Positions 1-53,994 of a DNA stretch of 64,000 nt are shown here, piece after piece. The translations under genes and the position numbers were made by a program. Each line of letters begins with the position of its first letter. Positions within the stretch are counted from its first letter, which is position 1. The notes below the pieces were generated by a model. The model did not search any database and was not told where the DNA came from. It saw nothing but the letters and a program-made list of their open reading frames with translations. Source of the stretch: Bacilli bacterium. GTDB taxonomy: Bacteria; Bacillota_I; Bacilli_A; RF39; UBA660. Where the stretch lies: the NCBI GenBank assembly GCA_017434825.1, contig JAFSGC010000005.1, positions 3 through 64,002 on the forward strand, written 5' to 3'.

Positions 1-1
1 C

Positions 2-886
2 GCTACTCAATGTACAGTTACATGTGGCGGAGGAACAGAATATTATGTTGAATCTTACAAAGATGCATATTTAGATGCGACTTGTCCTGATGTTACTGTA
101 AATACGGGAGAGAGTTGTAATACTCAAGCATGTTGTAGCGAGGGAACATGGACTAAAGGCGATTGCACATTCTATGGGTATAGAGAATATGAAAGATACA
201 ACGAATGTAAAGGCGAATGGGAGTATGAAACACGCACTAAAGCGTGCGCAGGCCCAGACTTCGATTGTTATTGGACTGATTGCGAAGATGGCGTAACAGA
301 GGAAATTTGTTACTACTACTATGGTGACGAATTACAAGATTGGGCCAGAGACGAAGATACATGCGAAGACCCGGACGCTGATATTAAAGGAACGACGCCA
401 TCAATAACTCCAAACGGAAACATTGGTACGCGATATGATGACAACTGCAATTCGTATTTTATTACTACCTGCGCTAGTGCCAGTAATGATTCACTGTGTA
501 ATTACACTCAAATAAATGGTAGATCTCAGTCTGGCACAATTAGAAGAGGAAATTTAAAAACTGCCTTACCAGCTAGTTGTAATCAGCCGACTACTACGAC
601 CAAAGATATATGTGATTACGACGGATCAGAGCTGTTTGGAAGATATAAAGGACATATAACCGGATCGAATGGTGAGAAAAACTACGGCACCTGGTATGGG
701 TCGCTTAGCTTCTCGTATCAATGTTATAATGGCGCCGGATGTTATAGAAGCAATGGTTATGAGAGAATTTGCGTAGCTGATGAATGCGGAATATACAAAG
801 GATGGACAGCAAAACAAATTAAGGATGCCAAAGGTTGCGACTTTTCAAGATTTTGGTGTTCTTGCGCACATGAAGGGAAGTTCTAA
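2..886 (+). CDS. Partial (5'-truncated) Cys-rich extracellular protein, paralog of the 974-aa pilin-like adhesin; contains a thrombospondin type-1-like motif
   Basis: Not in the ORF track. Hand translation of frame 2 is open from base 2 to TAA 884-886: ATQCTVTCGGGTEYY...TGESCNTQACC...GTRYDDNCNSYFITTC...FWCSCAHEGKF*, about 25 Cys in 294 aa. The stop overlaps the next ATG (TAATG). Confidence 0.85.
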   Translation, partial: ATQCTVTCGGGTEYYVESYKDAYLDATCPDVTVNTGESCNTQACCSEGTWTKGDCTFYGYREYERYNECKGEWEYETRTKACAGPDFDCYWTDCEDGVTEEICYYYYGDELQDWARDEDTCEDPDADIKGTTPSITPNGNIGTRYDDNCNSYFITTCASASNDSLCNYTQINGRSQSGTIRRGNLKTALPASCNQPTTTTKDICDYDGSELFGRYKGHITGSNGEKNYGTWYGSLSFSYQCYNGAGCYRSNGYERICVADECGIYKGWTAKQIKDAKGCDFSRFWCSCAHEGKF

Positions 887-1314
887 TGAAAAATAAAATA
901 CTATTAATACTAGGAATATTAATTATACTGTTTGGGATAATTGGAGGCGCATACTTTCTTATGAAAGATGAGCCTTCTTCCCCAACGTCAAATCCGGAAA
1001 ATGGAGAAAAATATCCTGGCACCGGCGGCGAAGAACTTAGAGAGGACTTCTACGACTGGGAAACTGAACTTAATGACAAAATGCTTAAAATGCTTAACGA
1101 AGTTTATCCAGAAAATCATAAATTTGATTTAAATACGGGCGAAACATTGGAAATAAATTTAAATGCATTTGATAAAAAATATAAGCTGGATACTTCTGAT
1201 TTTAATAACGAAAACGTTAAGTGCGATGTATATAAATCCAAAGTAATTGTTTCAAACGATAGTGAATATGGAATAATGCGCGGAGCTCAAGTAGTTTGCG
1301 AAAAATTAAAATAA
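886..1314 (+). CDS. Membrane-anchored small protein with a C-terminal Cys pair (pilin-head-like)
   Basis: N-terminal TM helix (ILLILGILIILFGIIGGAYFL); CD...SKVIV...VVC ending; translationally coupled to the upstream gene. Confidence 0.75.
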   Translation: MKNKILLILGILIILFGIIGGAYFLMKDEPSSPTSNPENGEKYPGTGGEELREDFYDWETELNDKMLKMLNEVYPENHKFDLNTGETLEINLNAFDKKYKLDTSDFNNENVKCDVYKSKVIVSNDSEYGIMRGAQVVCEKLK

Positions 1315-1316
1315 GC

Positions 1317-1352
1317 AAAAGATAGTTTAAATAGCTATCTTTTTTTGTTATA
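1317..1352 (+). terminator. Intrinsic terminator, copy 1 of a 36-bp repeat
   Basis: AAAAGATAG-tttaaatag-CTATCTTTTTTT hairpin plus T-tract; 33/36 identical to 5126-5161. Confidence 0.8.
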
Positions 1353-1379
1353 CTTATACTAGAGAAAAGTAGGGATAAA

Positions 1380-4304
1380 ATGAAAAAGAAAAAAGGATTT
1401 ACTTTAGTGGAGTTACTAGTAGCAATTGTTATATTAGGTTCAATATTAACCTTGGGAGCGTTAGTGGTCTCATCGGTTAATAAAAATGTAAAAGAAAAGC
1501 AATTGCAAAATCTTGAATCTTCAATAAAGGTTGCTGCTAGAAAATATGTAAATGACACAGGTATCAAAAAAGTTTATGTTGAAACTTTAGTTGAAGAAGG
1601 CCTTATAGAGGCTGATGATGAACAAATGGATATTCAAAACCCAATAGATAATACTTCTATGAAATGTTATATAGTAGATTTTTCTACAGACCTTGAAAAT
1701 CCACAATTAGTCCCAGGTACTGCTGACGGGGACAATAATTGCCCACCTGAAAGAATAAATGATTCAAATATCTTCTTAACATATTGTTTGGTTCCAAATG
1801 GGATTTCTGATTGTACTCCTACAACTAAATTAACAAACACAAGTGCTATATATAATAAATGGGTTAATCAAAATATAATACTAGGAGTTGATTATTCTGC
1901 ATGGAAAGCCAAAGAAGCAGACTTTAATCCTGAAAATTTACAAATAAATTGGATTACCCCATATAATCCAACTGGCGTTATTCAGGGAGAAAAATATCCT
2001 GTAGAATTACCAAGCTCAAATTATATTGATAATTTATACCAAGTAAAACTTCATTATAATGGCAAAGATTATGTAACTTCAGGAAGAATAAAAATAGACA
2101 TGCAAGTTCCTGTAGTAAAAGACATGATAGTAGAAAGTTTAAATAAATGGACAACCAAGAAAAAAATGACTCTTCAACTCGAAGACAAAGAATCTGGTTT
2201 ATTGGCATATTCAATATCAACTTCTAATAATGTATCAGACGTTGAATGGACCAATGTTGACGGAAAGTCATCAACAATTAGAAAAGACATATTAGAAAAC
2301 GGAACATACTATGTATGGGTTAAAGATTTAGCAGGTAATACCAATGAAGCTAGCATAGAAGATTCAAAAATAGAAATTAATAAGATTGATAATATACCAC
2401 CAACATGCACTAATAGTGGCGACAACGAGACTTGGACGAATGAAGATATTATTATTTATTGGGGGTGTGCCGATGAAGGCGGATCTGATTGCGAAATTTC
2501 TTCTGGAGGATCTAAAGAATATGATGAAACAACTAAAACAGATACTATTGCCGAGTATATAGTAAAAGATAATGCTGGAAATGAAACAAAGTGTGATTCT
2601 CGTATTGCAAAAGTCTATGTGGACAAAACCGTACCTGAATGCACTCATGGCGGTGATAGCACAGAATGGACTAATGGAAACAGAGTCATAACTTGGGGAT
2701 GTAACGATGAAGATTCAAAGTGCGATCCAAATAATAGTGGAGATAAGAAAGAGTATGATAAAACAACTAAAACAGCCACAATTAACGAATATATAATAAA
2801 AGACAATGCTGGAAACGAAACAAAATGTGAATCGCGAATAGCCAATATATATGTAGATAAAACAAAGCCAACTTGCGCTATTCCGTCGGGATATACAACG
2901 TGGACAAATAGTAACAGAACAATAACTTGGGGATGTAACGATGAAGATTCAAAGTGCGATTCAAATAATAGTGGAGATAAAAAAGATTACACTACTACTA
3001 CCACAACTGATTATATTAATGACTACACAATAAAAGATAACGCGGGTAATAAGCAAGAATGCAAAGTTGGAAGCGTAGGAGTTTATGTTGATAAGGAGAA
3101 TCCTGTAATTCAATCATTCACAATTACAAGCAATCAAGCAGATTACAATTCTAAAAATGTTACTTTATCTATAGAGGCGTCAGATGAATACAGTAAAGTA
3201 GATAAAATTTGTATAACAACCTCTAAAAAGAGTGATAATTGTACTTGGCTGAACATGACAAGCGATACTTACACAAATACTGATTATAACATCTCTACAG
3301 ATGAAGGAACTGGAGATACCAAAACATTATATGCTTTTGTAAAAGACAAAGCGGGTAATATTTCAAACTCTACTAAAGCAACATATACTTTATATGATGA
3401 ATGCGATGAAACGGACTACGTAGATACAATTTATTATTGTGAAGATGATAATGACTGTGGGGGAGCTCAATATAGCTACAAGATAAAAACTGATACATAT
3501 TTAGGAACAAGCTGTAATACGACTCCAAAGAAAACTGGTGAAACTTGTAATTCTGGGTGCGAAGAACCTGAGGAAGATACTGGTGATGAGTATGCATGTG
3601 GTTCAGCGCCAGGTGATAGCTACACCGAACACATTTGTGAGAAGCGATGTATACTTGCATCAAACAAAAAAGTAAAAATAACGTGGTGTGAACCTACAAA
3701 CAAATCAGATGCCAAATGTCATTATGAAGATGGAAATACTACAAAAGAGATTTTAAGAAATAATTTAGGACCCGAGACTTCGTGTGCCACATCAAATGAG
3801 ACAAACGCAAATAAATGTTCTTCAAAAAAAGGGACTTATTACGATTCCGATTGTAACGCGTATAATATAACTTGCTGCACTAGCGGATCGTGTGAATATG
3901 ATGAACGAAACGGGGTTGAAATCAAAGGCACAGTTAAAGAAACAAAGTTAAGTTCTAGTTTATCCCAAAAATGTAAAACAAAAATAATTTGCGCTATTTG
4001 GCTGGGAAAATCAAATGGAAAAGCGAAGTTCTATATGAATAAAAGCATTCCGGAATGCGAAATTATAAAACACGAAAAACTTAGTGGTAAATGTACAATG
4101 GAAAATGGTGGGACTTACTATTTTTTAGGAAATTATTCTTCAGCGGTTAACCAAGGCTGTGGCTGGAAAATTTATACTGCCGGAAAAGTTCTTTCGTATC
4201 AAGGCGAAGATAGGAGCGATAAGAAATGGGTAACATATGACTGTGGAAACGGGAAATTTTGTACTGATAGTTGTGAGCCTGGAAAAGGCGCTTGTTCAAA
4301 TTAG
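1380..4304 (+). CDS. Giant modular type IV pilin-like protein: prepilin N-methylation signal, Ig-like repeats, Cys-rich C-terminus
   Basis: Class III signal MKKKKG|FTLVELLVAIVILG with E5; repeated D..PP.C...W.C.D....KDNAGN units; very Cys-rich last ~300 aa. Confidence 0.85.
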   Translation: MKKKKGFTLVELLVAIVILGSILTLGALVVSSVNKNVKEKQLQNLESSIKVAARKYVNDTGIKKVYVETLVEEGLIEADDEQMDIQNPIDNTSMKCYIVDFSTDLENPQLVPGTADGDNNCPPERINDSNIFLTYCLVPNGISDCTPTTKLTNTSAIYNKWVNQNIILGVDYSAWKAKEADFNPENLQINWITPYNPTGVIQGEKYPVELPSSNYIDNLYQVKLHYNGKDYVTSGRIKIDMQVPVVKDMIVESLNKWTTKKKMTLQLEDKESGLLAYSISTSNNVSDVEWTNVDGKSSTIRKDILENGTYYVWVKDLAGNTNEASIEDSKIEINKIDNIPPTCTNSGDNETWTNEDIIIYWGCADEGGSDCEISSGGSKEYDETTKTDTIAEYIVKDNAGNETKCDSRIAKVYVDKTVPECTHGGDSTEWTNGNRVITWGCNDEDSKCDPNNSGDKKEYDKTTKTATINEYIIKDNAGNETKCESRIANIYVDKTKPTCAIPSGYTTWTNSNRTITWGCNDEDSKCDSNNSGDKKDYTTTTTTDYINDYTIKDNAGNKQECKVGSVGVYVDKENPVIQSFTITSNQADYNSKNVTLSIEASDEYSKVDKICITTSKKSDNCTWLNMTSDTYTNTDYNISTDEGTGDTKTLYAFVKDKAGNISNSTKATYTLYDECDETDYVDTIYYCEDDNDCGGAQYSYKIKTDTYLGTSCNTTPKKTGETCNSGCEEPEEDTGDEYACGSAPGDSYTEHICEKRCILASNKKVKITWCEPTNKSDAKCHYEDGNTTKEILRNNLGPETSCATSNETNANKCSSKKGTYYDSDCNAYNITCCTSGSCEYDERNGVEIKGTVKETKLSSSLSQKCKTKIICAIWLGKSNGKAKFYMNKSIPECEIIKHEKLSGKCTMENGGTYYFLGNYSSAVNQGCGWKIYTAGKVLSYQGEDRSDKKWVTYDCGNGKFCTDSCEPGKGACSN
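2385..3095 (+). repeat. Three intragenic tandem ~234-bp (78-aa) Ig-like repeats
   Basis: ATAACTTGGGGATGTAACGATGAAGATTCAAAGTGCGAT occurs at 2688 and 2922 (period 234); protein units begin DNIPPTC, DKTVPEC, DKTKPTC. Confidence 0.85.
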
Positions 4305-4312
4305 GGAGTAAT

Positions 4313-5134
4313 ATGAAAAAGATAATATATATAATATTAATAATATCAATTATTGTTTTAATTGCCGTTATATCCTTTTTGAAGGGGGTTGAAGATAATA
4401 AAGATCCAATACTTATCGGATGCGTTCAAAAAGGAAACATTTGTAATGAAGCCGCCATTTCTTCGGGAGTTCCTGTTGAAATTAAAGTAAATGATTCCCA
4501 AAAAATAAAATTTTATGTTATTGATAACACAGAAGATAATATGACTTTATTAATGGCAGAAAACCTTGAAGATAATGTTAATTGGCATAATGAACTTATC
4601 AATATTAAAGGTCCGGTAACAGCGATGGAAGTTTTAGGCGAAAATACTAAATCTTGGAGCTTAATTGAAAATATAAATAATTATACCTATGATGACTATG
4701 GATTAAAGTATTTTAATAAGAAATGTTCGTCTATAGATATAAGCGGTTATGATTGTTCGGATGATATCTATGAAGTTAGAGGGTATAAAAAAATAGTATT
4801 ATCTAATAGTTCTTATATAGAATGGAATTTACCTGAAGAAGATGCCATTTATAATTTTGATAATAAGACTTTTAAAGCTCGATTGATTACGGTTGAAGAA
4901 CTTACTAAATTATTGTCAAAAGGTGAAAATAAATGGTTAATAAGTAATTTAAATGAAAATGAAGGGTATTGGACGCTAAGCTCATCCACTGTTCAAAAAA
5001 CTGATTATAACGCAGGTGCATATGCTGTAATAAATCTAGAGGGTAAACCAGTAATTGAACCGGCATATGTAGATATTTATAATAATGACTATAAAATTGG
5101 AATTAGACCGGTAATTGTAGTTGATAAAAGATAG
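4313..5134 (+). CDS. Membrane-anchored extracellular protein, DUF6273-like C-terminal domain
   Basis: RBS AGGGAG before ATG 4313; N-terminal TM; ARLITVEEL, YWTLSS and GIRPVIVV motifs. Confidence 0.7.
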   Translation: MKKIIYIILIISIIVLIAVISFLKGVEDNKDPILIGCVQKGNICNEAAISSGVPVEIKVNDSQKIKFYVIDNTEDNMTLLMAENLEDNVNWHNELINIKGPVTAMEVLGENTKSWSLIENINNYTYDDYGLKYFNKKCSSIDISGYDCSDDIYEVRGYKKIVLSNSSYIEWNLPEEDAIYNFDNKTFKARLITVEELTKLLSKGENKWLISNLNENEGYWTLSSSTVQKTDYNAGAYAVINLEGKPVIEPAYVDIYNNDYKIGIRPVIVVDKR

Positions 5135-5161
5135 TTTAAAACACTATCTTTTTTTGTTATA
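5126..5161 (+). terminator. Intrinsic terminator, copy 2; abuts the TGTTATAAT extended -10 for polA
   Basis: AAAAGATAG-tttaaaaca-CTATCTTTTTTT followed by TGTTATAAT. Confidence 0.8.
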
Positions 5162-5180
5162 ATTAATGTACAGGTGAAAT

Positions 5181-7736
5181 ATGAAAAAAATAGTTTTAAT
5201 AGATGGAAATAATTTAATGTTTCGTAGTTATTATGCAACAGCTTATAATGGCAATATGATGCGTAACAGCAAGGATTTTCCAACAAATGCATTGTATGGT
5301 TTTACTACAATGATTAATAAAATAATATCTGAAGAAGAGCCTAGCTATATTGCTGTAGCTTTTGATATTGGTAAGAACTTTCGAAAACAAGAATTTGATT
5401 TTTATAAAGAAGGTCGTAATGCCACTCCGGAAGAATTAAAAATGCAAATGCCAATTGCAAGAAATCTTTTAGATGCAATGGGAATCTGCCATTTAGAATT
5501 AGAACCGTATGAAGCAGATGATATCATCGGGACTTTAGTAAAAAAAGTTGATGAGGATAATAATTTTGATGCAACTATTATTTCTAGCGACAAGGATTTA
5601 CTTCAATTAATCAATTATGAAACTGACGTAAAACTTTTAAAGCAAACAGGATATATTAGATATAATGAAAAAACTTTCTTTGATGATTATCAAATAGAAC
5701 CGAAGAAAATAATCGATTTAAAAGCATTAATGGGAGATGCTTCGGATAACATTCCTGGTGTTAAAGGAATAGGAGAAAAAACAGCACTTAAACTCTTGGT
5801 GGAATATGGTTCCTTAGAAAATATTTATGAAAACATAGATAATATTAAAGGTAGTGTTCATGACAAACTAGTAAACGATAAAGATAACGCATTTATGTCT
5901 CAAAAAATAGCTACTATTTATACTGATGTTCCGTTGAAAGTTGAACTAGAAAATTTAAAATATAATGGACCCGATTTTGAAAAATTAAAAGAGCTTTATA
6001 CAGAACTTGAGTTTCATTCATTTTTAAAAAATTTAAATGTTCCAAAAGAAGTTAAAGAATATAAGTATATCAGTGTAGATGAGACGATAAACGTTGTTTT
6101 AAAAGATGAAGTTGCGTTATACATTACTACTGACAGCGAAGTATATACAAAAGCTAAGATTATTGGAGCAGCGGTTACTGATGGTAAATATTCATACTAC
6201 TTTGATAAGGATAATCTAGGTAGACTTAACGATGTTCTTAACAATAAAAAAGTCATTACTTATGATCATAAAAAGAACTTATATTATTTAACTAGTGAAA
6301 TGACTTTGCTAGATGACTTGATGATTAGTGCATATTTACTTAATTATAATGTTAAAGATGACCTGGCATTTTTAGCTTCTTCTTTTGGGGAAGAAATAGA
6401 GTATCACTCGGTATTAAATAAAAATTTAAATGTTGATGAAATAGCTAAAAATACTGTACAAAGAGCTAATTTGATTTTTGAAACAAATAAAATTTTAAGA
6501 GAAAAATTAGAAAGCGAAGAGTTAATAGAATTGTATGAAACCATAGAATTACCACTTATCAAAGTATTATCTGATATGGAAAAAGCTGGAGTTAAAGTAG
6601 ACAGAGATGTCTTGATAACTCAAGGAAATGATATATCAAATAAACTTGAAGAACTAACTCAAAAAATATATGAACAAGCTGGCGAAGAATTTAATATAGC
6701 TTCAGTTAAACAACTTGGAGAGGTTCTTTTTGAAAAATTACAAATTGCTAAAGGAAAGAAAAATAAAACTGGATATAAGACTGATGTAGCTACTTTGGAA
6801 AAATTAAAAGATGAACACCCAATTATTGAACTAATATTGGAGTATCGTAACTTAGCAAAATTGAAATCAACATATATTGAAGGTCTACAAAACTGTATCT
6901 TTGCTGATGGCAAAATTCATACAATATTTAAACAAACTATTGCTAGAACCGGAAGACTTTCTTCAGTTGAACCAAATTTACAAAATATACCTGTTAGAGA
7001 AGAACTAGGAAGAAAGATAAGGGAAGCGTTTATTCCCGAAAATGATTTATTTTTAAGCTGCGACTATTCACAAATTGAGCTTAGACTACTTGCACACATT
7101 GCAAATTGCCCTAGTATGATTGAAACATTTAATAATAATGGTGATATTCATACTAAAGTTGCTAGTGATATTAATGGCGTTGATCCTAGCGAAGTGACTA
7201 AAGATATGCGTTCAAAGGCTAAATCAGTAATATTTGGAATTGTGTATGGCATTAGCAGCTATGGATTAATGGAAAATATTCATGTAAATAAAAAAGAAGC
7301 CGATTACTTCATTGAAAAATATTATGCTCTATATCCCGAAGTAAAAGCTTATATGACAAATACAGTTGAAAGAGCAAAAGAATGTGGATATGTAAAAACG
7401 ATGTTTAAGCGTAAAAGAATTATTGATGAAATTAATAATTCAAATTATATGATTCGTCAAACTGGAGAAAGAATGGCAATTAATACTCCAATCCAAGGAA
7501 CTGCTGCTGATATTATTAAACTAGCCATGATTAAGATAAAAGAGGCCTTTACAAAGGAAAATATTAAAAGTAAAATGTTATTGCAAGTTCATGACGAATT
7601 AATTTTTGATGTTAAACAGGAAGAACTTGATAAAGTTACAGAGATTGTAACTAAAACTATGGAAAGTGTTATTGATTTAAAAGTACCACTTAAAGTAAGT
7701 ACAGATACAGGTAAAAACTGGTATGACACAAAATAG
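5181..7736 (+). CDS. polA: DNA polymerase I
   Basis: LIDGNNLMFRSYYA 5'-3' exonuclease start; TGRLSSVEPNLQNIP, DYSQIELR and LLQVHDELIF family A motifs. Confidence 0.98.
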   Translation: MKKIVLIDGNNLMFRSYYATAYNGNMMRNSKDFPTNALYGFTTMINKIISEEEPSYIAVAFDIGKNFRKQEFDFYKEGRNATPEELKMQMPIARNLLDAMGICHLELEPYEADDIIGTLVKKVDEDNNFDATIISSDKDLLQLINYETDVKLLKQTGYIRYNEKTFFDDYQIEPKKIIDLKALMGDASDNIPGVKGIGEKTALKLLVEYGSLENIYENIDNIKGSVHDKLVNDKDNAFMSQKIATIYTDVPLKVELENLKYNGPDFEKLKELYTELEFHSFLKNLNVPKEVKEYKYISVDETINVVLKDEVALYITTDSEVYTKAKIIGAAVTDGKYSYYFDKDNLGRLNDVLNNKKVITYDHKKNLYYLTSEMTLLDDLMISAYLLNYNVKDDLAFLASSFGEEIEYHSVLNKNLNVDEIAKNTVQRANLIFETNKILREKLESEELIELYETIELPLIKVLSDMEKAGVKVDRDVLITQGNDISNKLEELTQKIYEQAGEEFNIASVKQLGEVLFEKLQIAKGKKNKTGYKTDVATLEKLKDEHPIIELILEYRNLAKLKSTYIEGLQNCIFADGKIHTIFKQTIARTGRLSSVEPNLQNIPVREELGRKIREAFIPENDLFLSCDYSQIELRLLAHIANCPSMIETFNNNGDIHTKVASDINGVDPSEVTKDMRSKAKSVIFGIVYGISSYGLMENIHVNKKEADYFIEKYYALYPEVKAYMTNTVERAKECGYVKTMFKRKRIIDEINNSNYMIRQTGERMAINTPIQGTAADIIKLAMIKIKEAFTKENIKSKMLLQVHDELIFDVKQEELDKVTEIVTKTMESVIDLKVPLKVSTDTGKNWYDTK

Positions 7737-7745
7737 GGAGAAAAT

Positions 7746-9086
7746 ATGACATATAATGAAATAAAAGGGAAATATAAGAACTTTATCTATGAAAAATTTG
7801 AGGTTATTGAATTTCCAGAAAGCTATAAAGTTGTATATTATTTTGAAATCGAAGGATTAAAGAAATTTACTCCAAGTTTAGAAATTGAAAAAAAATATAT
7901 TAAAAATCCAAGTATCAATAAAGATTTTCTAAATGATTTGCTGTTTCATGTTGGACTAGTAGAACTAGTTAGCTACTGGAAATGTGCGATGTGCGAAAAT
8001 GTAATTATTAAGGCTGGTCTTTTAGATGAAAAGCAAATAAATTGGTTTAAGAAAATGTATTATTATGGCCTTGGTGAATTTATGTATATAAATAACATCG
8101 ATATAAGTATTGAAGACTTTATGCATATTCATGTAGAGGCACCAAAAATAGCTTATAACGTTAATTACGAAGGCCAAGGCAATTTAATTGCCATTGGTGG
8201 AGGAAAAGACTCTAATGTAAGTTTAAATTTATTAAAAAACATGTACGATGATAATGATGCATTTATGATTAATCCTAAAGCTGTACATTATGAGTGTGCT
8301 AAAGTTGGAGGATACGAAAACAAAAGTATAATAGTTAAAAGGAACTTAGACCAAGGCTTAATAGAACTAAATAAAGAAGGTTTTTTAAACGGTCATACAC
8401 CATTTTCAGCATTAGTATCATTTGTATCACTGCTTACAGCATATTTAACTAATAAAAAGTATATTATCTTATCAAATGAGAGTAGTGCAAACGAAAGCAA
8501 TGTTGAAGGAACTAAAATAAATCATCAATATTCAAAAAGCTATGAATATGAATGTGATTTCAATAATTACGTAAAAGATAATTTTGCAGTAGATATTCAC
8601 TATTTTAGTTTATTAAGGCCGCTTGCAGAAATTCAAATTGCAATGTTATTTGCTAAGTTCAAAGAATATCATAGCGTATTTAAGAGTTGCAACGTAGGCA
8701 GTAAAGCAGAACCATGGCATTGGTGTTGTAACTGTCCAAAATGTTTATTTGTATACATAATATTATGTCCGTTCTTAAGCGATAAAGAACTAAATGACAT
8801 TTTTGGAGAAGATTTATTTACAAAAGAAGATTTATTAGAAACATTCATAGAATTAACAGGGAATTCTGTTCATAAGCCGTTTGAATGCGTAGGTACTTAT
8901 GAAGAAGTAAATTATGCTATATCACGTAAGATAGAAAAATACAATGGTAAGCTTCCATATTTACTTGAATACTATCAAAAACACTTTGAAATTGTCCCAG
9001 AAAACGGATTATTAAAAAGTTTTAATACAGAAAACAATTTACCTGTAGAATTTATAGAGATTGTTAGAGGTGCAATCAATGAGTAA
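7746..9086 (+). CDS. murL: UDP-MurNAc-L-Ala-L-Glu epimerase (MurL-like)
   Basis: GGGKDS PP-loop, LNGHTPFSA, NHQYSKS, SLLRP, WCCNCPKCLF and KPFECVG motifs; overlaps a murD gene. Confidence 0.8.
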   Translation: MTYNEIKGKYKNFIYEKFEVIEFPESYKVVYYFEIEGLKKFTPSLEIEKKYIKNPSINKDFLNDLLFHVGLVELVSYWKCAMCENVIIKAGLLDEKQINWFKKMYYYGLGEFMYINNIDISIEDFMHIHVEAPKIAYNVNYEGQGNLIAIGGGKDSNVSLNLLKNMYDDNDAFMINPKAVHYECAKVGGYENKSIIVKRNLDQGLIELNKEGFLNGHTPFSALVSFVSLLTAYLTNKKYIILSNESSANESNVEGTKINHQYSKSYEYECDFNNYVKDNFAVDIHYFSLLRPLAEIQIAMLFAKFKEYHSVFKSCNVGSKAEPWHWCCNCPKCLFVYIILCPFLSDKELNDIFGEDLFTKEDLLETFIELTGNSVHKPFECVGTYEEVNYAISRKIEKYNGKLPYLLEYYQKHFEIVPENGLLKSFNTENNLPVEFIEIVRGAINE

Positions 9087-10413
9087 GATAAAAGAAATAT
9101 TAGAAAATAAAAATATTGTTATATTAGGTTTTGGAAAAGAAGGAAAATCTACTTTAGAATATATCCGTAAATATTTTCCTGAGCAAAAAGTAACTGTTAT
9201 GGATCAAAACTTCCAAAATATTAGTATTGAAGATGAAAATGTTCGTATCATAGACGTCAATTTCGATGAGCTGGTAAATTACGATTTAATATTTAAAGCT
9301 CCAGGAGTATCATTAAAAAGTGTTAACGTAGCTCCATTTAAAGATAAAATTACTTCACAATTACAATTATTATTGGAAACCACTAAAGGGTTTACAATTG
9401 GTGTAACTGGTTCAAAAGGAAAAAGTACAACATCATCATTAATATATAAAATGATAAATGATCAAGGATATAAATCTTATTTAGTAGGAAATATTGGAAA
9501 TCCTATACTAGATGTTATAGATAATATTGATGAAGACACTTACGTTGTTATTGAGATGTCATCTCATCAACTAGAGTTTGTAAAAAATTCTCCTAATATT
9601 GGTATCATACTAAATTTATTTCCAGAACACCTTGACCATTATCGTAGTTTAGACGGATATTATAAAGCTAAATTAAATATAGCTAACTTTCAAACTAAAG
9701 ATGACTATTTTATTTATTCAACTGACAATGATGATTTAAAACAATATATTACTTACGTAAACACTGAGGCTGAACGCTTTGATTTAAATTTTGAAAAGAA
9801 AGAAAATTCATATGCATATATCAATGAAGACTATATCGTAGTTGATGATGAAAAAACATTTGATATTACAACTGATATTAAACTAAAAGGAATGCATAAT
9901 TTAAAAGATATTATGTTTGCATTATCTGTAGCCAGTTTATTAAACTTAGAATATGATAAGTGTATCAAAACAATAAATGAATTTGAACCTCTTGCTCATC
10001 GTATGGAACTCGTAGGAAAGTATAATGATATAATTTTCTATAACGATTCAATTGCAACGATTCCAGATGCGGCAATGAACGCTGTAAATAGCTTAGGAAA
10101 TGTTAATACACTGATAATTGGTGGCATGGACAGAGGCATTGATTATTCTGGATTCATTACATATTTAAAAGAATGCGATGTCGAAAATATAATTTGTATG
10201 CCTGATACAGGAATTAAAATTATGCAAGAAATCAAAGATGTTAAGAAAACTTATGAAGCAAAAGATATTGAGACTGCAGTAGATATTGCAAAAAAAGTAA
10301 CTAAGAAAGACGCGATTTGCTTATTATCTCCAGCGGCATCCAGTTATGGATTTTATAAAAATTTTGAAGAACGTGGAGATCGTTATAAAGAACATATCAA
10401 AAAGAATAATTAA
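9079..10413 (+). CDS. murD: MurD-family ligase, probably the L-Glu-adding MurD2
   Basis: ILGFGKEG, GVTGSKGKSTT, EMSSHQL, HLDHY, NDSIAT and LLSPAASSY motifs; ATG 9079 overlaps the murL end. Confidence 0.9.
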   Translation: MSKIKEILENKNIVILGFGKEGKSTLEYIRKYFPEQKVTVMDQNFQNISIEDENVRIIDVNFDELVNYDLIFKAPGVSLKSVNVAPFKDKITSQLQLLLETTKGFTIGVTGSKGKSTTSSLIYKMINDQGYKSYLVGNIGNPILDVIDNIDEDTYVVIEMSSHQLEFVKNSPNIGIILNLFPEHLDHYRSLDGYYKAKLNIANFQTKDDYFIYSTDNDDLKQYITYVNTEAERFDLNFEKKENSYAYINEDYIVVDDEKTFDITTDIKLKGMHNLKDIMFALSVASLLNLEYDKCIKTINEFEPLAHRMELVGKYNDIIFYNDSIATIPDAAMNAVNSLGNVNTLIIGGMDRGIDYSGFITYLKECDVENIICMPDTGIKIMQEIKDVKKTYEAKDIETAVDIAKKVTKKDAICLLSPAASSYGFYKNFEERGDRYKEHIKKNN

Positions 10414-50940: not shown

Positions 50941-51813
50941 ATGAATAAAAAATACATTAAATTCATTTTGATATCATTTAGCTTTTTACTTATATATTTA
51001 GCTTTTATAAACGCCAATCTTGTTGGTTCGTCTATCCAGCAAAGTTTAAAACTGTTTACTAGTAAAGTATTTCCATTTTTATTTATCATGATGGTAATAA
51101 ATAATTTTTTAATAGGTATGAATTTACCTTATTATATCTATAAAATTTTTCCTAATATATACATCTACATTTTTATTTTCTCTGCGTTATCTGGTAGCCC
51201 AATAAATGCAATTATAATAAATAAATTACTCGAGGAAGCCGAACTAAATGAAACACAAGCAAGCTACGCCCTTTGTTTTTCTACATTAAATAATCCATTA
51301 TTTTTATATAACTATTTTAATATTCTTTTCAACAATAACAATCTAATCATAAAGTTATTTATAATAATATATGTCTCAAATATTTTAATTCTATTATATA
51401 CGATTATAAGACACCCAATTAATAAAAGTTTAATACTGCAAAATAAAGAATGCTCTCCAGCAAAAGAATTGGTAGCAGCAATAAAAAATAGCACTTTAAA
51501 TTTAATTACAATTTTTACTACGATTGCCTTTTTTAAACTAATTACTGACTTATTGCTTCCGTCAAATAATATCCTATCAGTAATTATTAAAGGATTAACA
51601 GAAATAACTCAAGGATTAAATTCTATATGCATTTTAAATGTTTCTATCAAAACAAAAGAATTACTTACACTAGTAATTCTTTCATTCGCAGGATTTTCTA
51701 TTCATATCCAAATTTCTAGCATTCTAGAAAAGTATAATATTAATTATAAATACTTTTATTTATCAAGATTGTTTTTGATGATTATATCAATAATAATTAT
51801 ATGTCTATCATAA
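50941..51813 (+). CDS. ylbJ: Sporulation integral membrane protein YlbJ-like
   Basis: VFPFLF, LSGSP, NPLFL, EITQG and FAGFSIHIQ motifs; synteny with ylbL. Confidence 0.8.
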   Translation: MNKKYIKFILISFSFLLIYLAFINANLVGSSIQQSLKLFTSKVFPFLFIMMVINNFLIGMNLPYYIYKIFPNIYIYIFIFSALSGSPINAIIINKLLEEAELNETQASYALCFSTLNNPLFLYNYFNILFNNNNLIIKLFIIIYVSNILILLYTIIRHPINKSLILQNKECSPAKELVAAIKNSTLNLITIFTTIAFFKLITDLLLPSNNILSVIIKGLTEITQGLNSICILNVSIKTKELLTLVILSFAGFSIHIQISSILEKYNINYKYFYLSRLFLMIISIIIICLS

Positions 51814-52369
51814 AAGAAAATTCAATATCATCAATAGTATTATTGTTATCGATTATTTTATTTGCGTCCGAATCATAATAATCGGTATTTTTAGTGTTCT
51901 CAGTATAAACTTTAATTTTACATTCAACTAAACGTTTATTAAATGCAGCGTTCTCAACAGAACTGCATTTCAATCTTTCTTCTTTTATATCAGAAAATTT
52001 ACCACCTTTTAATTGCCATTCGTACAGAGTCGACTCAGCTTTAATTATTTTTAAAATGCCGCTTGCTTTAATAGCTTGAATTTCTATTGTAGATGATGGC
52101 GTTGATCCGATTAAAGTCAATTTAGAAAGTGTATCTTCATTAACCGGACTGTATCCAATGATGCTATCAATATTATCATCAATTGTCTTTTCAATTTTGT
52201 GAATCATTTCAATACGTTGTTCTTGGTTTTGGGATGCAAAATATTCATTGTCCTTTTGAAAAGTTATATCTGCGAGCATTCGATACATAAATAGCATAAC
52301 AACAGATATTAAAGCAACACTTACTAACAATTCGGTAATAGTTAAACCTTTATTATTCAGCTTTTTCAT
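51797..52369 (-). CDS. Type IV pilin-like protein (prepilin signal)
   Basis: MKKLNNKG|LTITELLVSVALI. Confidence 0.8.
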   Translation of the reverse strand: MKKLNNKGLTITELLVSVALISVVMLFMYRMLADITFQKDNEYFASQNQEQRIEMIHKIEKTIDDNIDSIIGYSPVNEDTLSKLTLIGSTPSSTIEIQAIKASGILKIIKAESTLYEWQLKGGKFSDIKEERLKCSSVENAAFNKRLVECKIKVYTENTKNTDYYDSDANKIIDNNNTIDDIEFSFMIDI

Positions 52370-52387
52370 TCTTGTTCACCCCCATGA

Positions 52388-53263
52388 TTAACTTCCCGCA
52401 ATAATATTATAAGGATTAGTAGATGTTCCTGTACCACCAGAAACCTTTACATTATCCTTCAAATAAAGAACCGGACGATATGCAAGCGCACTCGTACAAG
52501 GCACAGTGTCAGTTACGGAACCATCGGCATTAATACTATAGACTTTATTTGTAGTACCGCTAGCAGCCTTAACCATAGTCCATTCGTTATAACCGCCAAG
52601 CCAATTGTATGGCCTACAACTTTGAACTGCAGACAACGTTTGTGTACAACTACTACTTGGAGCAGCATATAAGTAATCATCAGTATGCATTAAACCTACT
52701 GGTTTCGAAACCACGAATGATCCTTGATATCTATGATTAGTATCAACAACTAACTCTTTATACGGAGAGGTAAAACCATTGTACACTGCTGTCAGCATGG
52801 TACTCATGTGGGTATCAGTCCAAGAATTAAACGAAGAAACATTAATACGACTTTCCGGATTGGATTCTGCACTAATAATCTTAACTAAATATTGGGCAGT
52901 TCCAGGAACATTCAATATTCCTATTATTCGCCACAATTTTCCATTAAAATTTATATAATTATTAGGGTTTGTCCCTTGATAACGATACTCACTTCCATTT
53001 TGTGCAATCCAATAAATATAACTTGTATCATTAATTCCTCCGTATTCAAATTCTGTTTGAATTTTCTTTATTAGCGTAGGATAACTGTCAACAATATCAT
53101 CACCTTTTCCAGATATCTGCTGTTTAATATCCGTTTTATATATGTTGTACACATACCGGTTATTTACATATGTCGACATCATTAAAGTAAGTAGTAATAA
53201 AAACACTATAAAAAAGGAATAAATTACTGATATTGAGATAAAACCATTCTTTTTCTTCATCAT
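52388..53263 (-). CDS. Minor pilin-like protein lacking E5, with a DUF6273-like C-terminal domain
   Basis: KKKNG|FISISVIYSFF; YQGTNPNNYINFNGKLWRIIG; YRPVLYLK...GGTGTSTNPY; ATGA overlap with the upstream gene. Confidence 0.75.
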   Translation of the reverse strand: MMKKKNGFISISVIYSFFIVFLLLLTLMMSTYVNNRYVYNIYKTDIKQQISGKGDDIVDSYPTLIKKIQTEFEYGGINDTSYIYWIAQNGSEYRYQGTNPNNYINFNGKLWRIIGILNVPGTAQYLVKIISAESNPESRINVSSFNSWTDTHMSTMLTAVYNGFTSPYKELVVDTNHRYQGSFVVSKPVGLMHTDDYLYAAPSSSCTQTLSAVQSCRPYNWLGGYNEWTMVKAASGTTNKVYSINADGSVTDTVPCTSALAYRPVLYLKDNVKVSGGTGTSTNPYNIIAGS

Positions 53264-53994
53264 AAATACACCCACGAAATATAGTACGCATTTTGACAAG
53301 CCATATCAAAATTTACCTTATCATTAGCATCATATTTTTCAAATTTCTTATTAATATCAGATAAACCTGCTACCCCATTATAATGTTCATCTACCTTCTT
53401 GTAAATACATTCTGAATATTTACCTCTACCTACTGAAACAACATTATTTGAGTCAACTAAAGCATCTCCATTTTTAGCTTCATAAAATAAAGCGACTAAT
53501 ATTCCATCATGGCTATGCCCACTATCAGGAACATCCAAAGTCGTTAAATAATAAGTAAGTTGACTATATCCATAATCATTTATATGAGTTTTGGTTCTAT
53601 CACACATTCCAGCATCTTCTGGATTATTATTTAAACATTTCTTTAAAGGAACAATATCTTCGTTTCTAATATACACTAATTGAGAAAATTTATATAATTC
53701 ACTCGCGTCCATAATAAGCGAACTATCAGAATAAATATCAGTTAAAATATTAAAAATAAAAACATATTTATCATTTGCATCTACCGCTTTATCAAATTTG
53801 ACTGTATCTATTGATAACTTTAATACATCCGCAATATGTTTGGTTTTATAGATATACGAAATATCATCATGATATAATCTATTTTGTTCATTAATTATAA
53901 CTTTGCTAAATGCCGAATACAACAAAAGAAGTGTAGCCATTACAACTACAACAGTAATTATTGTCTCAATAAATATAAAACCCTTTTTGTTCAT
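53260..53994 (-). CDS. Type IV pilin-like protein (prepilin signal)
   Basis: MNKKG|FIFIETIITVVVV. Confidence 0.8.
   Translation of the reverse strand: MNKKGFIFIETIITVVVVMATLLLLYSAFSKVIINEQNRLYHDDISYIYKTKHIADVLKLSIDTVKFDKAVDANDKYVFIFNILTDIYSDSSLIMDASELYKFSQLVYIRNEDIVPLKKCLNNNPEDAGMCDRTKTHINDYGYSQLTYYLTTLDVPDSGHSHDGILVALFYEAKNGDALVDSNNVVSVGRGKYSECIYKKVDEHYNGVAGLSDINKKFEKYDANDKVNFDMACQNAYYISWVYL

Follow-up and report, generated by a model that had tools for sequence, protein, structure and literature searches.

Introduction

PilV of the IncI1 shufflon is a minor pilin with exchangeable C-terminal specificity domains, and CDI, Rhs and LXG are polymorphic toxin/immunity systems. Modular type IV pilins carry extra modules at the C-terminus, which are proposed to be exposed at the pilus tip (bioRxiv 10.1101/2021.01.27.428410). 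A phage tail fibre and its cognate chaperone are exchanged as one module, and the chaperone is sometimes dispensable or acts as a cap (PMC10579305). CpaB and LipB are membrane-anchored chaperones of type II secretion systems (T2SS) with secreted enzymes as clients (PMC4713064), and TpsA/tpsC/IORF is a further polymorphic toxin/immunity system (PMC3848433).

The locus described here lies in a member of the RF39 lineage, which is reduced and auxotrophic (PMC12306168). These gut Bacilli of about 1 Mb are uncultured. The locus contains giant Cys-rich type IV pilins with variable tips. Its novelty lies in the range of interchangeable tips, which extends over the genus and over part of the family, and in the separate exported partner family that goes with each tip. 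A search of the open literature on RF39/UBA660 pili, modular pilins, pilin-linked toxins and prepilins with TSP1 modules turned up no account of cassettes of this kind; in the main text of bioRxiv 10.1101/2021.01.27.428410, as distinct from its 264-architecture supplement, the words 'thrombospondin' and 'shufflon' are absent.

Results

Genome and sample

The window, that is the whole stretch of 64,000 nucleotides analysed, is the start of contig C19 of genome G000 (1.07 Mb, 29% GC; 93.4% complete, 5.8% contaminated), which is present in gut metagenomes. Comparisons were made with 22 genomes of the genus and 401 genomes of the family, the latter from at least 214 genera. In G000 itself, contig C4 holds second copies, 65-78% identical, of stretches that other contigs also contain, and a dnaA-dnaN pair is on C3; both are possibly bin contamination. 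Genes like those of conjugative elements, as judged by eye, are on C1.

The N-terminus of the giant pilins was found in 17 of the 22 genus genomes by a profile search, the profile having been built from several of those same genomes, and in 30 of the 401 family genomes (18 of 214 genera), with five candidates scored per genome. A generic prepilin pattern used as the scan query retrieved unrelated pilins for the most part.

Two cassettes at the start of the window

The original prediction described two units, each made of a large Cys-rich gene, a closely coupled membrane-anchored partner gene and a near-identical terminator, and both the open reading frames and the repeat are present in the sequence, all on the plus strand. 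Gene 1 (positions 2-886) is a 5'-open frame of 294 aa with 25 Cys, the 3' part of a giant pilin that we call X, and it ends in a tip of about 90 aa (599-883; class A), in which 8 Cys are invariant among 9 aligned members. It overlaps by its stop codon (TAATG) the start of partner A (886-1314, 142 aa). Cassette junction 1 follows (1317-1356), with a hairpin, a U-tract and an extended -10 element (TGnTATACT). The second unit begins with GP974 (1380-4304), a giant pilin of 974 aa and 44 Cys, which ends in a tip of class B; then comes partner B (4313-5134, 273 aa from ATG), with an N-terminal transmembrane helix and a DUF6273-like domain. At junction 2 (5126-5165) the hairpin lies over the stop codon of partner B and the extended -10 element (TGnTATAAT) lies ahead of polA (5181-7736), which is outside the system and forms the conserved downstream boundary of the array.

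The near-identical terminators are a 40-nt repeat, 90% identical between the two copies; its hairpin occurs seven times in the genome, five of them at giant-pilin cassettes. Because each copy ends, beyond hairpin and U-tract, with an extended -10 element, the junction repeat is read as a terminator plus a promoter.

Behind polA, a MurL-like epimerase gene (NF041275, E 2e-75, under the cut-off) adjoins murD (window 7746-10413), and the same pair stands 3' of polA in G004 and G003. It is possibly the alternative D-glutamate route of peptidoglycan synthesis in a reduced-genome member of the Bacilli.

Modules of the giant pilins

A class III prepilin signal had been proposed for the 974-aa protein, and the models PF07963 (E 6.9e-8) and TIGR02532 both match GP974 over their cut-offs, as they do for GP844, another giant pilin of the same genome. 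The order of modules in the giant pilins is prepilin, a conserved region of about 330 aa, Ig-like repeats, a TSP1-like module, an SH3-like module and the tip; the repeats, the SH3-like module and TSP_1 in relatives are thus extra, non-pilin modules at the C-terminal side of the kind that marks modular pilins. Across the system the proteins range from 650 to 1,400 aa.

The stalk of GP974 does consist of repeats as predicted, three of 78 aa at a spacing of 234 nt (2382-3383), but their Ig-like nature is inferred, the matches to HYR, DUF7743 and Big models being weak. The TSP1-like module begins at 3384. TSP_1 (Pfam) is over the cut-off in six of the scanned relatives and below it in the window proteins, and the structural model of the module gave weak Foldseek matches to TSP1 and properdin. 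One or more SH3-like modules follow at 3621-3974, placed by motif and alignment. The corresponding module of gene 1 (404-571; aa 135-190 of the fragment) is a small beta-barrel block with pLDDT 70-78 in an AlphaFold model that is poor overall (pLDDT 50), and its structural match to SH3/KOW folds is modest (Z about 5). Gene 1 and GP974 share modules, as had been claimed, with 29% identity over 198 aa (E 8e-8). The last 90 or so residues of gene 1 had been called unrelated to those of GP974, and the two ends indeed belong to different tip classes. Tip B (3975-4301) is a Cys-rich domain of about 110 aa, separate from tip A, and is common to the pilin on contig C7 and to pilins of other stalk families.

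In G001 a giant pilin (L023, 8206-11059) has four ephrin-receptor-like Cys repeats (PF07699, E 3e-21) in place of TSP1-like modules.

The 5' end of gene 1 and the number of giant pilins

Whether gene 1 starts with a prepilin signal was a point on which the original prediction depended. The first 141 nt of C19 are identical to those of C7, and contigs C12 and C14 for their part have their last 141 nt in common, within an identical 65-aa prepilin start. Positions 2-139 of the window are the end of this two-copy repeat, within the TSP1-like module, and the sequence is unique from 140. Window 1-139 lies in a unitig of 1,171 nt at depth 27.6, against 13-15 in the flanks, and C12 1-220 lies in unitigs of 1,283 or 1,537 nt at about twice the flank depth in 3 of 4 runs; in both cases the runs may be the source of the assembly. 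PF07963 is over the cut-off at both candidate 5' ends. The 5' part of gene 1 is therefore almost certainly a collapsed two-copy repeat that opens with a class III prepilin, the same start at either possible end, and X would be about 1,050 aa or more at full length.

In G004, G012 and G018 a Tad-like operon, two membrane proteins, giant pilins and polA follow one another, and this synteny suggests that C12 adjoins the window. With the two-copy repeat and this join, G000 has four giant pilins: X and GP844 with tip A and partner A, and GP974 and X' with tip B and partner B. A spare partner B gene is upstream of GP844 on C12. X' stands directly 3' of pnp (L043, C14 18074-18328), and its terminator-promoter junction matches the one on C12; this position and the matching junction suggest that X' is a copy into a new site.

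Exchange of tips between stalks

That tips are exchangeable was the central claim of the original prediction, and the tips have moved between stalks. First, X and X' match exactly through position 139, show 45-73% amino acid identity beyond it and end in different tip classes with unrelated partners. Between them dN is 0.24-0.78 and dS 1.2-2.0, near saturation, with no sign of dN above dS. The mosaic seen in X/X' is recent, and the 3' ends that it combines are old. Secondly, the members of a tip class lie scattered across the stalk tree: in a tree of 36 N-termini, the starred branches require four or more changes for each of tips A, B and C and three or more for tip D, and there are starred sister pairs with different tips. 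Eight N-terminal matches in 7 of the 22 genus genomes run off the contig end, as expected of repeats.

At the level of close strains, where swaps had been looked for on the suggestion of the same prediction, none was seen in the low-depth contigs of a second study: stalk, tip B and partner B are about 98-99% identical, and 7 of the 11 listed differences in GP974 are synonymous. At a depth of 3-5x, window 258-1285 has low cover in run X5 and one contig of run X6 does not fit before 1289; these anomalies might reflect another cassette in those strains. Parts of a shufflon, namely inverted silent tips, inverted sites or a recombinase, were not found in window 1-8000 or in the flanking contig ends.

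Coupling of tip and partner

The coupling set comprised 36 hand-collected C-termini, 29 of them with an adjacent partner and 7 without; truncated genes and the C-termini of L053 and L134, which have no partner-like neighbour, were left out. Among pairs of cassettes (n=29; kin are not independent), those of the same tip cluster had the same partner cluster in 73 of 73 cases, and those of different tips in 22 of 333. The reverse search agrees. For partner C, 12 of 14 matches were strong, and all 12 were at class-C tips (9 directly behind one, 2 second in tandem, 1 a pseudogene behind one); for partner D, 13 of 18 were strong, and all 13 were at class-D pilins (11 directly behind, 2 in tandem). 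The pairing is also kept in other genera: in G163 tip B is followed by partner B on a different stalk family, and in G056 tip C is followed by partner C. The partner gene is closely coupled, as predicted, but it is more than an accessory neighbour, its family tracking the tip class across genera. X and X' have the pilin end in common but not the partner, so the specificity would have to reside in the C-terminal part.

This coupling has limits. Adjacent genes are co-inherited in any case, and part of the coupling is therefore linkage; within class D (n=10) the similarity of partners correlates with that of tips at rho 0.3 and with that of the upstream region equally at rho 0.3, no higher for the tip. 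In G005, synteny with G006 shows that partner C has been lost behind an intact tip-C gene, and two queries found no partner C elsewhere in that genome (91% complete). G018 (96% complete) has three class-C tips, 30-40% identical in the variable part, and one partner C. Outside the genus, 32 complete giant pilins were inspected by eye: some 12 come with a coupled exported partner and some 20 lack one, after removal of two rule-based partner matches that were a housekeeping gene. Conversely, surplus partners occur in five genomes: on C12 of G000, in G012 and G021, and as tandem pairs in G016 and G008. The closest relative (51%) of the spare partner B of G000 goes with the divergent tips of G004.

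At L242 (G009, C2) a partner C pseudogene with 13 stops lies behind an intact class-C pilin, and another partner C is on a separate contig.

Classes of tips and partners

There are at least six matched classes of tip and partner. Tip A gave no family match and no PDB match (model pLDDT 74), which does not establish a new fold; among the 401 family genomes it occurs in G000 only, and seven further members are in a protein library from which genomic context is absent. Class D tips are Cys knots of 30-45 aa at the very end, after Gly linkers. Searches of the tips against toxin and enzyme families gave no match in Pfam, NCBIfam, PADLOC or the PDB.

Partner A has an N-terminal transmembrane helix and a domain of about 100 aa that is predicted to fold similarly to a pilin head (TM 0.68 against a cluster that is 98% N_methyl); the partner of the second tip-A pilin, on C12, shares 30% identity with partner A. 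An assignment to TcA_TcB_BD (Pfam E 0.11) was noise, and an apparent relation to the giant-pilin N-terminus was discarded, the profile comparison having aligned the membrane helix only. Partner B has a predicted DUF6273-like fold (feature score 0.96; the family is on 17-52% of cluster members) that also occurs in N_methyl proteins; Pfam DUF6273 gave no match at partner B loci. Its homologues are on C7 and C12 and in G004 and G163. Partners A and B are not related (best E 0.69), and N_methyl models match neither, so that the class III pilin nature of a chaperone of the PilA-PilC type is lacking in both.

Partner D is a lipoprotein; 5 of 13 mature parts weakly match the BSAP-5i immunity lipoprotein family (E 2e-4 to 8e-3), with scores far below the cut-off of 150. 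Sequence searches of the PDB gave no convincing match for partner C or D. Partner C was considered as IseA (PF16800) and rejected, with no match at partner loci in five genomes, and a resemblance of partner E to DUF3298 was unsupported. A further class with partners of about 640 aa occurs in four genomes.

Assembly machinery

The pilus reading called for a type IV assembly machinery in the genome, and PilB-, PilC- and PilD-like genes are present together with two Tad-like sets. Three T2SSE ATPases are over the cut-off, one of the GspE/PilB type (C12) and two of the TadA type, with no PilT among them; a PilC-like platform and an A24 peptidase are on C6, and small pilins also occur. The PilB/PilC/PilD-like genes are unlinked, and their scores are below the NCBIfam equivalog cut-offs. 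One TadA-type ATPase set, with TadE-like and TadB/C-like genes, is immediately upstream of the array. As a Tad-like operon precedes the array in several genomes, it is uncertain which machine assembles the giant pilins; their GFxxxE leader better fits a PilB/PilC/PilD machine.

Several other genes may belong with pili. Two related membrane-anchored proteins of 313 and 728 aa (L041, C12 4102-7208), without a confident Pfam family, precede giant pilins in at least seven genomes of the genus, whether or not the Tad operon is there, and are candidate dedicated assembly factors. Three adjacent pilin-like genes on the minus strand of the window (51797-53994; 190, 303 and 244 aa, the prepilin model matching the 190-aa one only) are possibly a minor-pilin set. 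Two membrane-anchored CxxC proteins (C10 4467-4961 and C15 67338-67946), recognised by motif only, could be candidate disulfide oxidases for the Cys-rich pilins. The second Tad-like locus (L273, C18 13500-21100) is beside a Cys-rich secreted protein of 1,353 aa (C18 21059-25120).

Discussion

The gene architecture, the machinery genes, the coupling of tip and partner classes and the mosaicism of stalk and tip are directly supported. We give about an even chance to the explanation that the locus encodes giant modular type IV pilins in which tip and partner are exchanged together, the tip being an adhesin and the partner a class-specific folding or capping factor. PilD would cleave the prepilin, and a PilB/PilC machine would place the subunit at the tip of the pilus. 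The Ig-like and TSP1-like stalk would then project the SH3-like module and the disulfide-rich tip outward, where the tip may bind a target surface, plausibly that of another bacterium on which the reduced-genome organism depends. Outside the membrane the tethered partner may bind the tip, either as a folding aid or as a shield until display. Tip and partner could be replaced jointly by homologous recombination within the stalk sequence that the pilins share, and possibly also at the terminator-promoter repeat. An adhesin with a chaperone or cap is favoured because partners are shared or lost, the modules are of adhesion type and no toxin domain was found. Some observations speak against it. 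Surplus partners would be more usual for immunity genes, partner D has a weak likeness to BSAP-5i, and the partner folds are unrelated between classes, which one chaperone mechanism does not need.

A different reading, which we regard as tentative, with roughly one chance in three, is a weapon or recognition system at the pilus tip, with small disulfide-rich effector tips, cognate exported partners that neutralise or recognise them, and spare partners for protection. A polymorphic toxin/immunity system, in which the pilus delivers a small disulfide-rich envelope-acting toxin to neighbours and the exported partner protects the producer, seems to us somewhat unlikely. The layout fits: as in TpsA/IORF (PMC3848433), the N-terminus is conserved, the C-terminus varies and the next gene downstream is tightly coupled to it; every partner class seen is exported, five genomes, G000 with its spare partner B among them, have surplus partners, and the Cys-knot ends of class D go with the lipoprotein like BSAP-5i. 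However, the tips match no toxin or enzyme family, an immunity gene is expected wherever the toxin gene is intact, and in the 91% complete genome G005 two queries found no partner to go with an intact tip, three variant tips in G018 have one partner, and the partner is absent beside many giant pilins of other genera. The shared partner of G018, the loss in G005 and the roughly 20 of 32 pilins without a partner favour a chaperone or cap over allele-specific immunity.

It is improbable that the partner acts as a receptor on the cell surface for its cognate tip, serving kin aggregation or the avoidance of self-binding. The outward-facing partners are matched to tip class and one genome displays several pairs, as self or kin recognition would have it, but matching in G018 is by class and not by allele, G005 has lost its partner, and the partners are short and membrane-proximal. 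Slightly less probable still is that the partners hitch-hike without a functional tie, or are non-canonical minor pilins on the pilin moiety as PilA is on PilC: linkage alone would explain co-inheritance and the predicted folds of partners A and B do occur in N_methyl proteins, but the pairing survives between genera, where identity is about 40%, and on different stalk families, X and X' have unrelated partners despite a common pilin end, and the PilA-PilC contact is made through the pilin moiety (PMC9934059), whereas the partners here are without a class III signal.

About 14 kb of a small genome are spent on four giant pilin cassettes, and the tips therefore likely matter. If they bind a host, they offer concrete bait with which to look for the partner organism; should they be effectors, they would make up a polymorphic toxin system carried on pilins, with tip families that are new. 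In either case the matched classes are small enough for direct expression and testing.

The comparison with known systems can be summarised as follows. Modular type IV pilins have the same class III signal, pilin module and C-terminal modules as the giant pilins, but the latter are Cys-rich, have TSP1- and SH3-like modules, and come as arrays of paralogues with exchangeable tips and a non-pilin partner. The comparison with PilB and PilC of S. sanguinis made in the original prediction applies to the modular pilin and does not extend to the tip-matched partner. PilV of IncI1 differs in another way: no inverted silent tips or adjacent recombinase were seen here, and every tip belongs to a complete gene of its own that has a partner. 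In polymorphic toxin/immunity systems there is likewise a conserved carrier, an exchangeable C-terminus, a co-varying cognate downstream gene and a surplus of partners; here neither a toxin domain nor silent tip cassettes truncated at the 5' end were detected, and the partner is sometimes lost or shared. CpaB and LipB are alike in layout, being encoded by an adjacent gene, having a single N-terminal transmembrane helix, being client-specific and being linked to a type IV filament machine, but their clients are secreted enzymes and not pilins. Finally, phage tail fibres and Tfa also consist of a variable binding tip and a downstream cognate partner that move together; there is no homology to them, and in the system described here a pilin acts as the carrier and the exported, membrane-anchored partner has a fold that depends on the class.
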